Below, in pieces: positions 41,954 to 46,820 of a DNA stretch of 64,000 nt. The stretch is taken from positions 17,236,001 through 17,300,000 of the forward strand of contig OZ024765.1 in assembly GCA_964016885.1 (NCBI GenBank), written 5' to 3'. Under the pieces are notes generated by a model. The model was given only the letters and a program-made list of their open reading frames with translations. It did no database searches and had not been told where the DNA came from. How positions within the stretch are numbered: the stretch's first letter is position 1; every line of letters begins with the position of its first letter. Origin of the DNA: Eledone cirrhosa. Taxonomy: Eukaryota. The translations under genes and the position numbers were made by a program.

Positions 41954-42441
41954 TTATGATGTTGTGTACTGTTTCAGAACAATGAAAGGTTTTAAAACAT
42001 AGCGAGTATTGAGGGATCGAACCTGCTTCCTTTTCCTCGAACGACTGGCCAAAAATGGCTTCACACTTTTCCCACATTTTGAGCAGGACACCTTTAGCTG
42101 AAGTACATTGCTCGGTGATCCAGAGATAGTATTTGATTGGTCCATATCAACATAGCGTTGTAAGAGCTCCGTCGGAAGTTTAAAGTTTTGCATGTAACTC
42201 CTCTTAACGCGCGTTTTAAGCTTTTGTAAAAGGGTCTCCTCCCCCGAAGTGGCATTCACCTCATGAATTTTAATGGTGACACGTTTGTTCCTCCTTTTCC
42301 TCTGTTTCTGGTGGTTATCCGGCTGTTTAGATTTTTTATTCGGCCTTCTCTTAATCACCACCAGCAAATATGCGCTGATTACCTTTGTGTGGCCTTCACC
42401 TGGACGCACGTTGAATTTCAGTATATTTTTCTTTTTCGTAC
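41954..42441 (-). CDS. Exon 2 of the same gene: prodomain arm region ending in TAA with no mature ligand
   Basis: Acceptor TTTTTTTTTAAAG|GT, phase 1, joins exon 1 in frame (355+488=843 nt, 280 aa). ILKFNV...VISAYLLV, FKLPTELLQRYV, LQLKVSCSKC and KPFIVL parallel the inhibin-beta prodomain motifs LHFEI...VERAEVWL, FPVSSSIQRLL, LDVRIACEQC and RPFLML, recalled from memory and compared by eye. Confidence 0.8.
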
Positions 42442-42679
42442 CTTTAAAAAAAAAACGCATAAAACGATTTAGAAAATATAAACGCAGATTTATTTCTGTC
42501 TGTTTGGACAAATTGCAATTGGATTATAATACAACGTTTGCAAGTGAGATGGATTGGCAGTGTATACAAACAGTTTTTTTTTTAACGATCGACTTTCGCC
42601 AAATCGGACCGAGGAAACAATGTTTCCATTGGTCTTTCCAATTGCCAGTACTATCTATCGGTCGCAACTCCAGGTAGAA

Positions 42680-42800
42680 GGAGCAACGTGAAATAAAGTG
42701 TCTTGCTCAAGGACATAACGCATCGCCTGGTCCAGGAATCGAACTCACAACCTCACGATTGCGAATCCAATTCTCTAACCACTCAGCCACACGCCTTCAC
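42680..42800 (-). mobile_element. SINE family B head, inside the intron of the TGF-beta-like gene
   Basis: Minus strand reads GGCGTGTGGCTGAGTGGTTAGAG...GAGTTCGATTCCTGG...TTGAGCAAGACACTTTATTTCACGTTGCTCC. Confidence 0.8.
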
Positions 42801-42824
42801 TAATACATACAAATTGGTGGACAT

Positions 42825-43200
42825 TTCCAGTAAAAAAAGCCAATAAAATGCAGGCATACATATCAGATATTATGACATGGGACAGGGAAGAGAAAGCATA
42901 CACAGTAGTGGAAGTTAGCTGCCCAGCAGATGCCAATATAATGTCAAAGATTAGTGAAAAGGAGAATATTTATGCAGAACTAATGAGAAATCTACAGATA
43001 CTCCACCCTGATTACACCTCCAGATTTACACCTGTGATTATTGGGGCACTGGTATATGTTAGTAACTGCCTCAATACAAATCTAGAGAAGCTAGGCTTCA
43101 CAGGAACAGAAAGAACACAACTAGTTAGGAAATTACAAGTACAATCCTTTAATGGAACAGTAAAAATATGTAAAACATTCCAAACATTTTGCATCTAATA
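42825..43200 (+). mobile_element. 3' fragment of an RLE-type non-LTR retrotransposon (R4/Dong-like)
   Basis: DIMTWD...VEVSCPAD.N...EKENIY..L...PVIIGAL fits the PD-(D/E)xK restriction-like endonuclease C-terminus. Confidence 0.8.
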
Positions 43201-43212
43201 ACTGTATATACA

Positions 43213-44080
43213 GTGGTGGTGGTGGTAGTGGTGGAAGTGTGTGTGTGTGTGGGGGGTAGTGGTGGTGGTAGTGGTGGAAGTGGTGGTGGTGACAACGTGG
43301 TGGTGGTAGTGGTGGTGGAAGTGGTGGTGGTGGTGGTAGTCGCGGTGGTAGTAACTGCAGGAGTAATGATGGTAGTTCAGGTGACAGTAGCTGTAGTGGT
43401 GGTGGTGGTGGTGGTAGTAGTGCCGGTGACAGTAGCACCGGTGATAGCAGTGGTAGCGGAAGTGGTATTAATAGTGGGTGGGTGGATGGTGGATGTGGTG
43501 ATGGCAGTGCCAGCTATAGTAGTTGTAGTGGTGGTAGTAGTGGTGGTAGTAGTAGTGGTGGTGGTCGTGGTATTAATGATGGGTGTTGGTAGTGTCGGAG
43601 ATAGTAGCTGTAGTGGTATTAGTAGGTGGTGGTAGTAGTAGTAGGTGTAGCGACATTAGTAGGTAGTGGTAGAAGTCGTAGTAGTAGTAGTAGTAGTAGT
43701 AGTAGTAGTAGTAGTAGTAGTAGTGGTGGTGGTAGTAACAGTAGTAGTAGTAATAGTAGTAATAGTAGCAGTAGTAGTAACATTAGTAGTAGTAGTGGTA
43801 GTAATAGTAGTAGTAATAATAATAATAGTAGTAGCAGTAGTAGTAAAATTAGTAGTAGTAGTAGTAGTAGTAGTAGTAGTAGTGGTGGTGGTGGTAGTAA
43901 CAGTAGTGGTAGTAATAGTAGTAATAGTAGCAGTAGTAGTAGTAGTAACATTAGTAGCAGTAGTGGTAGTAATAGTAGTAGTAATAATAATAATAGTAGT
44001 AGCAGTAGTAGTAAAATTAGTAGTAGTAGTAGTAGTAGTAGTAGCAGTAGTAGTAGTGGCGGTAGTGGTAGTAGTAAATT
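43213..44080. repeat. (GTG)n/(GTA)n trinucleotide tract with an internal duplication
   Basis: Direct observation. Other trinucleotide tracts at 26921-27085 (GAA), 41525-41940 (CAA) and 62940-63600 (TTG). Confidence 0.95.
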
Positions 44081-45990
44081 TCAACGAAGATATAGAATTA
44101 CTTTGAATTACAGGAATTAATACAAATTTAATATAAACTTTGACATGGGAGCATTATATATACAGTAGGGGGTGTATATATATATATGTATATATGTATG
44201 TATATATATGTATATATGTGTGTGTTTGTGCATATGTATATATGTATGTATATGTATTTGTTTACACACGCCCACACACAAAACATATATATATATATAT
44301 GTATATGTATATACATACATATATAGACATATATATACACACACACACACACACATATATACACACACACACACACATATATACACACACACATATATAC
44401 ACACACACACACATATATACACACACACACACATATATATATATATATATATATATATATATATATATATAAAAATACATACCATTGCGTATCTATACAC
44501 GTCTAAAACCACAAACATTTTATATATCTATCCAAACCGCAAATATTATATACATATATATATATACACACATAGATATATATATATATATATATATATA
44601 TATATATATATATATATATATATGTGTGTGTGTGTGTGTGTTGTGTGTGAGCGTGTGTGTGTGTGTGCGCGTGTGCGTGTGAGTTTACTTGATATATCCG
44701 GGAGCAATATAACACGAAAAAAATGGCCCCTGATCGTTTCTGCAGTTTGATACAATAGACATTTTACGGTAAAATTTATGTTCCATTGAAACTCGAGCTC
44801 AAACATTGTGTGTGTGTGTATGTGTGTGTGTGTGTGTGTGTGTGTGTGTGTGTGTATGTGTACATACATATATATATATAGCATCCATTTACATATATAT
44901 ATATATATATATATATATATATATATATATATATATATATATATGTACATGGACACACACAAATATATTACATATACATTCATACACAAAACACGCTTAC
45001 AATATACATATATAGACACACACGCGCATACAATATATATACATACATGTATATATATATATATATATATACACACACACACATTTATAATTTACAGTTA
45101 TTACTCAGTTGTCTCATCTCATGTTGAGGCATTGCATTCCTTAAGCAATGATACACACACACATAAATATATATGTGCATACATGTATAAATATATAAAT
45201 ATATAAATACATGCATACATATATAAATATATATATATATATATATATACATGCATACATATATATATATATATAAATATATATATATATATATAAATAT
45301 ATATACATACATATATATAAATATATATATAAATATATATACATACATATATATATAAATATATATACATACATATATAAATATAGATACATACAGATAT
45401 AAATATAGATACATACATACATATATAAATATATATACATACATGCATATATATATAAATATGTAGACATACATACATATATAAATATATGTACATACAT
45501 ATATATATAAATATATACATATATATATATACATACATATATATATATATATACATATATATATAAATATATACATATATATATATACATACATATATAT
45601 ATATACATACATATATATATATACATACATATATATATATACATACACATATATACATACATATATATAAACACACACACACACACACACACACACACAC
45701 ACACACACACACACACACACACACAGACACACATACATATATACATATATATATATATATACATATATATATATATATACATATAAAATGACATGTTTAT
45801 CATACTTGAGAAAATCGGCTGACGATGACCATTTAGATTTAAGTACGAATTAACTGGCTATGATACACTCTCTGTAGCTTTGCCATTCTCATTGGCTACT
45901 GAGAAGATCCCGGTTCAAAAGATACGTCATCAGGCTCCTTTGTATATTCCTTAACAAACAGCTCTTATGAATCATGATCTGTTATATTAA

Positions 45991-46080
45991 TTGTTTCTAC
46001 TATTGGCACAAGGCCAGAAAATTACCCAGTACATTACTGGTACTTTATTTTATCGACCCCGTAAGGATGAAAGGCAAAGT
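45991..46080 (-). mobile_element. SINE family A 3' half, cut off at the adjacent fold-back element
   Basis: Matches the 3' part of family A and stops at GGCAAAGT. Confidence 0.8.
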
Positions 46081-46349
46081 TAATAAAAGGAATTCCAACT
46101 TTGTCTGTTTTACTCGTTTTATTTTCGTGTGGTGACAGTGAAGTTTGAAATTTTCGACAGTTGAAAATTGCAAACTTCACTGTCACCACACAATATGAAC
46201 CTGAAGATTGCGAGAGCATGAAAGTACTTGTTCAATTAACACTTAACATTTAATATTCTACCATACTATTTCATTCTAATACCATTATACATTTTAAAGG
46301 ATTGTAAATAAAACGAGTAAAACAGACAAAGTTGGAATTCCTTTTATTA
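46081..46349 (+). mobile_element. Fold-back element with 44-bp perfect terminal inverted repeats; probable Penelope pLTR remnant
   Basis: TAATAAAAGGAATTCCAACTTTGTCTGTTTTACTCGTTTTATTT and its reverse complement at the two ends. Internal hairpin at about 46128-46191. Hammerhead motif inside. Confidence 0.8.
46192..46237 (+). ncRNA. Minimal type I hammerhead ribozyme
   Basis: TGAAC-CTGAAGA-T-TGC(GAGA)GCA-T-GAAA-G(TA)C-TT-GTTCA. Stem II has a GNRA loop and stem III is the self-complementary AAGTACTT. Confidence 0.78.
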
Positions 46350-46465
46350 ATATAATCTTCTATACACAATCATACACACCCGTGTATATATATATATATA
46401 TATATATATATATATCACAAAAACCTACGTCTATATAAAAATGTAAAATAAATTTGTCATCTCAC

Positions 46466-46820
46466 CTGACGATTGTAAGAGAACTAAAGAGGAATTTGAT
46501 GGCTTCTTGTCATTCTGTGGCGTTATACTTGCCGGCGTTTCTGCGACACTTTGGTACATGCTAGAAGATGGTGTAAGTTTACTTTTGTTCAAGGCATTAC
46601 TGATGTCCCTTTGAATGGTCAACAAACGATGGTATTGTTTCATTTCCTTTTTTTCCTTCAAGCATTTTGTCGAGTTACAAGGGGCCATCGTCTGCTTTGT
46701 GTTTGTTGTAAACGATCGTCTGAAAATTGGACGGCTATCGTGCTCAGCAATGAAACACAATAATATAAACAACCAGACGATACACATTCCACTATTTTTC
46801 ATTCTAAGGGAGAGCGCCAT
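46466..46820 (-). CDS. Exon 1 of a secreted TGF-beta-family (activin/inhibin-beta/myostatin-like) prodomain protein
   Basis: ATG at 46820 in an AAACATGG context. Hydrophobic signal-like stretch MCIVWLFILLCFIA. CNSTKC followed by RLLTIQRDISNAL resembles the Cys pair plus latency helix of activin/myostatin prodomains. Ends LVLLQSSG at a CAG|GTGAGA donor, phase 1. Confidence 0.8.

Follow-up and report, generated by a model that had tools for sequence, protein, structure and literature searches.

Can a TGF-beta prodomain be the whole product of a gene? Such prodomains are usually seen as by-products of ligand processing, and free prodomains serve as engineered inhibitors. A two-exon gene on the minus strand of a 64,000-nucleotide (nt) stretch of Eledone cirrhosa DNA (contig OZ024765.1, positions 17,236,001 to 17,300,000; hereafter the window) raises this question, as a preliminary description read it as an activin/inhibin-beta-like gene that encodes a prodomain and no mature ligand. 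Based on its sequence and on structure prediction, the gene is an intact, stand-alone activin/inhibin-beta-type prodomain. On this point the earlier proposal is borne out, by the fold, by a stop codon conserved among relatives, and by the absence of a ligand exon from the window and the next 200 kb downstream.

The gene model was reproduced from the letters of the sequence (Table 1). Joined through a phase-1 GT-AG intron, the exons form 843 nt that encode an uninterrupted 280-amino-acid (aa) protein with a single terminal stop, a signal-like N terminus, and cysteines at residues 13, 22, 48, 53, 238, and 241. Exon 2 begins at 42441, preceded by a poly-T tract and AG. The hydrophobic core of the likely signal peptide, 11 residues from residue 14, has a mean Kyte-Doolittle hydropathy of 3.30, versus 0.35 for the best segment elsewhere in exon 1, and hydropathy finds such an N-terminal core in all five full-length ligand-less relatives tested. 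Searching the whole 3.0-Gb genome with P0021, a full-length cephalopod relative, gave two matches, both in the window gene and colinear (P0021 residues 116 to 281 on exon 2, E 4e-12; residues 46 to 115 on exon 1, E 0.65). Exon 2 was single-copy in the genome search (one match among 12 candidates), and among eight proteins exon 1 best matched P0023 (E 7e-9) and P0021 (E 2e-7). The place of the intron is supported by a cuttlefish-type relative, whose spliced and genomic forms diverge at the equivalent site. Within the intron, window positions 42586 to 43150 hold high-copy dispersed repeats, covered very deeply by contigs of all four runs.

Short-read contigs of three runs from one sample (X1 to X3) extend from 41935 to 42608, 42463, and 42445, respectively, with no differing letters and no gaps. 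Because these contigs agree at the TAA, the stop is not an assembly consensus error, although the sample may be the assembled individual. A fourth run, X4, of a kind not on record, covered exon 2 partially and faded near the acceptor; it was not used, and the X3 contig also ends at 42445.

We aligned an AlphaFold model of exon 2 (predicted local distance difference test [pLDDT], 74; predicted template modeling score [pTM], 0.69) exhaustively to 48,161 chains, and pro-activin A ranked first, in agreement with the prodomain fold expected from the preliminary description. The match to 5hly has a Z score of 12.9 and a root mean square deviation of 2.5 A over 124 aligned residues, with model residues 2 to 160 on chain residues 131 to 300 at 19% identity; other matches were to 5hlz (Z 12.7), pro-BMP10 (Z 10.6), pro-myostatin (6umx; Z 9.2), and 6gff (Z 7.4). 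Foldseek also placed pro-activin A at the top for the exon-2 model (E 3.6e-5), and the model of full-length P0021 had the same top matches. A profile of ten ligand-less family members matched PDB inhibin beta A chains (E 1.3e-5 and 7.3e-5), and Atlas put exon 2 among PF00688 (TGFb_propeptide) clusters with a score of 0.95. In exon 1, the pattern of the alpha1 helix aligned in all eight N termini compared, and the segment is helical (residues 47 to 78) in the P0021 model, with pLDDT 81 to 88 over residues 51 to 70; for the window protein, the helix is thus a prediction from the alignment and from the P0021 model.

The hidden Markov model search for TGFb_propeptide, by which the prodomain was also to be recognized, fell short. 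A Pfam scan of both exons returned nothing relevant, with PF00688 below its gathering cut-off of 25.8 bits on both and giving no match at the locus. That cut-off was reached by no scanned family member, the relatives scoring 16.8 to 24.5 bits or giving no match. This miss lowers the annotation status of the gene, not the fold assignment.

The protein also ends where a prodomain should. The model aligns up to chain residue 300, and the pro-activin A linker is given as Glu301 to Arg310 in the cited passage (PMC4932183); therefore, the protein ends at the prodomain border. No furin site follows the last prodomain strand, as R-x-K/R-R occurs only internally, at exon-2 residues 47, 50, and 77; such sites are absent from three gastropod relatives. 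The 450 nt past the stop are, in three frames, (TTG)n-derived low complexity with no ligand, as the preliminary description had remarked. No poly(A)-like hexamer occurs within 1.4 kb past the stop; the first is at 40543.

To place this end point we turned to the relatives. An exhaustive homolog search gave 13 matches, and 12 were kept after P0006 was dropped as a low-complexity repeat artefact; nine of these end just past the last strand and three run into a TGF_beta domain. A profile search seeded with ligand-less members only returned seven matches, five of them new and all ligand-less. In total, 14 of 17 relative clusters lack a ligand, a proportion biased by the ligand-less seed, and for many relatives the prediction is a single exon on a genomic contig. 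The window protein and all 13 ligand-less relatives examined stop 9 to 21 residues past an invariant Pro, and the three ligand-bearing relatives extend 111 to 144 residues past it. Named ligand-less gene models come from Sepia (Acanthosepion) pharaonis, Pinctada imbricata, Patella caerulea (three isoforms), Lottia gigantea, and Gigantopelta aegis; among ligand-bearing relatives, the named one is an "inhibin beta A chain-like" protein of the chiton Liolophura sinensis.

In three relatives, P0021, P0025, and P0023, contigs of 1.0 to 1.7 kb (run type not on record) contain the equivalents of both exons; these relatives are therefore probably spliced complementary DNA. P0021 and P0025 share their stop with the genomic form P0002 and the Sepia model P0014, and the last 175 residues of P0021, stop included, equal those of P0002, a genomic read-through form that diverges at the exon junction. 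Since spliced and genomic relatives share this end point, the ligand-less state is neither an assembly artefact nor a private mutation. Two forms with other tails, P0024 (a 210-aa cluster mate of P0021) and P0026 (a 13-residue alternative tail), do not reach a ligand. A word-index search with exon 2 found no longer protein among 317 candidates, which is weak evidence; the same search with the chiton prodomain found 1 of 646, the query itself, and thus ligand-bearing gastropod or bivalve paralogues were not sampled.

A sister exon lies on the minus strand 575 kb upstream of the window gene (G000:C26:17851023-17853020; L049, L060). It has a 666-aa frame with the same prodomain, a basic furin-type RKRNRR site, and a degenerate ligand of about 300 aa, stretched by Asp/Gly/Asn/His/Gln/Thr runs and left with four knot-like cysteines, the last Cys being changed to Tyr. 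This ligand scores 15.6 bits with Pfam TGF_beta and escaped the genome-wide PF00019 search. The 47 kb upstream yielded no exon 1 for the sister gene. In a tree that left out P0002, a near-copy of P0021, and had P0017 represent P0009, the 18 family rows grouped against four BMP/myostatin-type outgroups with support of 94/94; the window protein joined P0001 (100/99) and then three cephalopod rows (87/94). An octopod-specific pairing with the sister exon was neither rejected nor shown (approximately unbiased test, p-AU 0.165). These relationships fit a history in which a decaying inhibin-beta-like gene was duplicated and the ligand was then lost, once or several times.

Could a ligand exon still be hidden downstream? 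Donor-like sites at 42022, 41969, and 41944 (the last, AAG/GTGTGT, 10 nt beyond the stop) could allow splicing onward, and two 200-N assembly gaps lie downstream of the gene (window 18370-18569 and L037:6269-6468). The sister exon's degenerate ligand escaped PF00019, which shows that such exons can hide, and the single-exon nature of many relatives and the ligand-less seed of the profile search also leave room for an incomplete gene. However, use of the donor at 42022 would cost the fold its last strand. PF00019 matched 13 places genome-wide, none of them in the window or the 200 kb further downstream, and only one on contig C26, 8.6 Mb off on the opposite strand. A profile of the genome's own ligands found nothing above 9.7 bits in 9,113 frames (window, next 200 kb, and L027), and with three divergent relatives added, nothing exceeded 7.6 bits in the same frames. 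As a positive control, both profiles put the sister exon's degenerate ligand at the top (12.0 bits, and 13.9 and 12.9 bits, among 2,916 frames). Given the modest score margin and the two gaps, the ligand-profile test alone is not decisive.

Gene architecture and the relatives argue in the same direction. The sister exon, P0007, and the chiton protein P0008 each encode prodomain and ligand in one open frame, and the apparently spliced cephalopod contigs share their stop codon with genomic forms. No frameshift or internal stop interrupts the 280-aa frame, its splice sites are GT-AG, and P0001, 65% identical to the window protein, ends one residue earlier. The preliminary description had named splicing past the stop to a cystine-knot exon and recent pseudogenization as ways in which it could fail, and orthologues with a conserved stop as support. 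No such exon turned up in the window or in the next 200 kb downstream, recent pseudogenization is not supported, and cephalopod, gastropod, and bivalve relatives end at the equivalent place, with three others carrying a ligand.

What, then, might a prodomain do without a ligand of its own? By analogy with known prodomains, we tentatively favor a free, likely secreted prodomain that would bind activin/myostatin-type ligands in trans and hold them on the heparan-sulfate matrix. Pro-complexes are described, in the passages cited from PMC4932183, as gripping the ligand by alpha1, the lasso, alpha2, and a strand that extends the ligand sheet; the same passages report that the activin A prodomain binds ligand with a Kd of 5 nM and that its Lys-rich region binds heparan sulfate. 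The myostatin prodomain inhibits via its N-terminal helix, and a 29-residue core with this helix suffices, according to the part cited of PMC4520684. Retention of alpha1, strong basicity (net charge of +10 for exon 1 and +32 for exon 2, and of +38 to +48 for five relatives), and heparan-sulfate binding by the activin A prodomain together favor a secreted, trans-acting tether or buffer. Such a protein would descend from a duplicate of a divergent inhibin-beta-like gene with a decaying ligand half, and would be exported through its signal peptide. Its alpha1 helix and junction strand would dock on a ligand dimer in the style of pro-activin A, while its strongly basic surface would bind heparan sulfate. 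The range of the ligand and its access to receptors would be limited, with the net effect of a tether or buffer and not of a tight latency cage. Candidate partners in the genome are the myostatin-like exons L007, L008, and L010, of which L007 is closest to myostatin in PDB. No conventional activin-beta ligand was recognized on inspection of the 13 PF00019 places (L002 to L014), of which only L007 was classified by search.

Several observations weigh against this trans-acting tether. Past alpha1, the P0021 model is disordered (residues 78 to 95, pLDDT below 50) and has no alpha2. The Leu/Pro pattern of the lasso, termed fully conserved in the cited passage of PMC4932183, can be seen clearly in Patella and the chiton; it is shifted in the window protein and missing from P0021, P0023, Lottia, and Gigantopelta. 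In the ligand-free model this region has low confidence. To judge from model and alignment, lasso and alpha2 may be eroded, and the evidence does not support a tight latency clamp. In the same source (PMC4932183), the activin A prodomain hardly lowers activity. The ligand-bearing chiton protein is equally basic (net +52), and the charge is thus an inheritance rather than a special adaptation. A single origin of the ligand-less rows was neither recovered nor rejected: they formed one group in 2% of bootstrap trees (p-AU 0.396), and Patella P0017 scored 44.6 bits against the sister exon and 32.5 bits against the window gene.

A secreted prodomain might instead have no role with TGF-beta ligands at all and act as a heparan-sulfate-binding matrix or niche signal in its own right, like Drosophila Anachronism (Ana). 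With full-length P0021 as query, Atlas ranked first an arthropod cluster named "protein anachronism" (score 0.96; 206 of 256 features), in which 56% of 55 members carry PF00688 and PF00019 is unlisted. Ana is a secreted glial glycoprotein with "TGF-beta, N-terminal" as its sole annotation in the cited part of PMC3901678, and it is genetically opposed by perlecan/Trol in the passages cited from PMC2174950 and PMC7179833. Within the family, conservation is stronger in the shoulder domain and basic loops than in the forearm. However, the Atlas recognition value for P0021 is 1900, below the 2300 level, which makes the anachronism match weak evidence; the second and third matches are chordate clusters, and the retained alpha1 helix has ligand binding as its known role. 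We consider this alternative unlikely, though it ranks next after the tether.

Less probable again is a partner in the secretory pathway that would co-fold with, or compete for, related ligand precursors such as that of the sister gene, as a trans-acting chaperone or dominant-negative subunit. In its favor, the sister ligand is stuffed with low-complexity sequence and keeps only four knot-like cysteines. However, a covalent ligand dimer requires the mature domain, and a protein without one of its own could not form it. Least credible, and already largely refuted by the shared stop, the clean frame, and the ligand searches above, is an ordinary ligand gene with its last exon unassembled or alternatively spliced, or a recent pseudogene.

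A broader version of the trans-acting tether would make the window gene one of a class of prodomain-only TGF-beta regulators, present in molluscs and, via Anachronism, perhaps in protostomes, that shed an inhibin-beta-like ligand and tether or silence activin/myostatin in trans. This extension is doubtful at present; under it, the sister gene on contig C26 would be a surviving half-shed ligand, and the class would supply Anachronism with its missing mechanism.

Independently of function, a mollusc gene family encoding a free activin-type prodomain is real and conserved, and it is apparently undescribed. No description of a mollusc prodomain-only gene was found in the literature searched, which did not cover subscription journals and excluded supplements. 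Surveys of spiralian activin/inhibin-like ligands list such ligands with no mention of a ligand-less gene in the cited parts of their main texts (PMC7522025, PMC10763453, PMC13121700), and the scallop census took only PF00019 carriers, according to the cited part (PMC10763453). With PF00019-only censuses and PF00688 below its cut-off, a ligand-less family is invisible to the usual surveys. That a natural ligand-less gene has been kept in cephalopods, gastropods, and bivalves shows that selection can maintain this domain for a function of its own. The family offers a candidate regulator of activin/myostatin signaling, relevant to farmed molluscs and spiralian development, and a testable link to a long-unexplained fly protein.

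Other TGF-beta loci were noted in the genome. L027 (G000:C2:129769122-129769328, minus strand) reaches 25.9 bits with PF00688, at the cut-off, with no PF00019 place near, and is a candidate for a further BMP-type prodomain exon, either ligand-less or split. L005 (C21:18.55 Mb) and L006 (C1589, unplaced) are near-identical BMP5-8-like last exons, probably a retained haplotype or recent duplicate. L009 (C14:8.57 Mb) and L011 (C27:5.52 Mb) encode divergent BMP-like ligands with FC instead of the usual CC, and in L011 a very long linker, basic and acidic, precedes the ligand. Elsewhere in the window are reverse-transcriptase remnants and repeated open frames (Table 1); we take the near-identical pair to resemble a mariner-type transposase fragment.

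Table 1. Features of the prodomain gene and other features of the window (positions in the window)
Feature	Position	Strand	Remarks
Coding exon 1	46466..46820	-	355 nt, 118 codons plus 1 nt, phase 1, then GTGAG; signal-like N terminus, N-terminal Cys pair (C48, C53), predicted alpha1 forearm helix, linker, pre-junction strand
Likely signal peptide	46737..46820	-	About residues 1-28; hydropathy only
Cys pair and predicted alpha1 helix	46581..46679	-	Residues 48-80; aligned with helix 47-78 of the P0021 model
Phase-1 GT-AG intron	42442..46465	-	4024 nt; microsatellites and dispersed repeats predominate
Coding exon 2	41954..42441	-	Activin-type prodomain shoulder/arm beta-sandwich, by open reading frame, fold, and profile matches; ends in TAA
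CxxC	42074..42085	-	C238, C241; invariant in family alignments A1, A4, A5
Last beta-strand, PFIVLKQY	41966..41989	-	Model strand 152-159; its conserved Pro is invariant in the family
Stop TAA	41954..41956	-	10 residues past the conserved Pro; ligand-bearing relatives have the furin linker there
Reverse-transcriptase remnant	13847-15784	+	RVT_1 E 1e-29 at 14206-15105
Reverse-transcriptase remnant	53458-54753	+	RVT_1 E 8e-4
Repeated open frames, near-identical pair	821-1339, 28255-28707	+	No Pfam match
Repeated open frames, three near-identical copies	4480-4755, 28892-29167, 52184-52459	-	

Among known systems, the closest is pro-activin A (inhibin beta A; PDB structures 5HLY and 5HLZ), which is both the best fold match and the best PDB match of the family profile, and which has in common with the window protein the CxxC, a surface rich in Lys/Arg, and a pair of N-terminal cysteines ahead of alpha1. 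Its prodomain is cleaved from a ligand precursor, whereas the window prodomain makes up the entire gene product; there is no furin site past the last strand and no cystine knot, and alpha2 and the lasso may be eroded. The myostatin/GDF11 prodomain and the TGF-beta1 latency-associated peptide have the same fold class, and the inhibitory-core alpha1 described in the cited part of PMC4520684 has a counterpart here; unlike the window protein, they arise in cis, together with their ligand, and hold it truly latent. Drosophila Ana, needed for neuroblast quiescence in the passage cited from PMC10913833, is the nearest known stand-alone prodomain-like gene and, by a weak match, the top Atlas neighbor of P0021; orthology between the two is weakly supported. 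The cited passages on Ana give no ligand-binding mechanism. The mollusc family adjoins ligand-carrying inhibin-beta-like genes. Those genes, the chiton XP_064614437.1 (P0016), P0005, and P0007, have the same prodomain subfamily (37% identity to exon 2 in alignment A4) but run on past a basic cleavage site to a TGF_beta domain (Pfam E 1e-16 to 1e-22). Where typical ligands show CC, theirs have a single Cys, which would amount to loss of the interchain Cys. Because the furin site and the cystine-knot domain are both absent from it, the window protein falls outside the ligand-precursor family, and it is predicted to work like a released prodomain.

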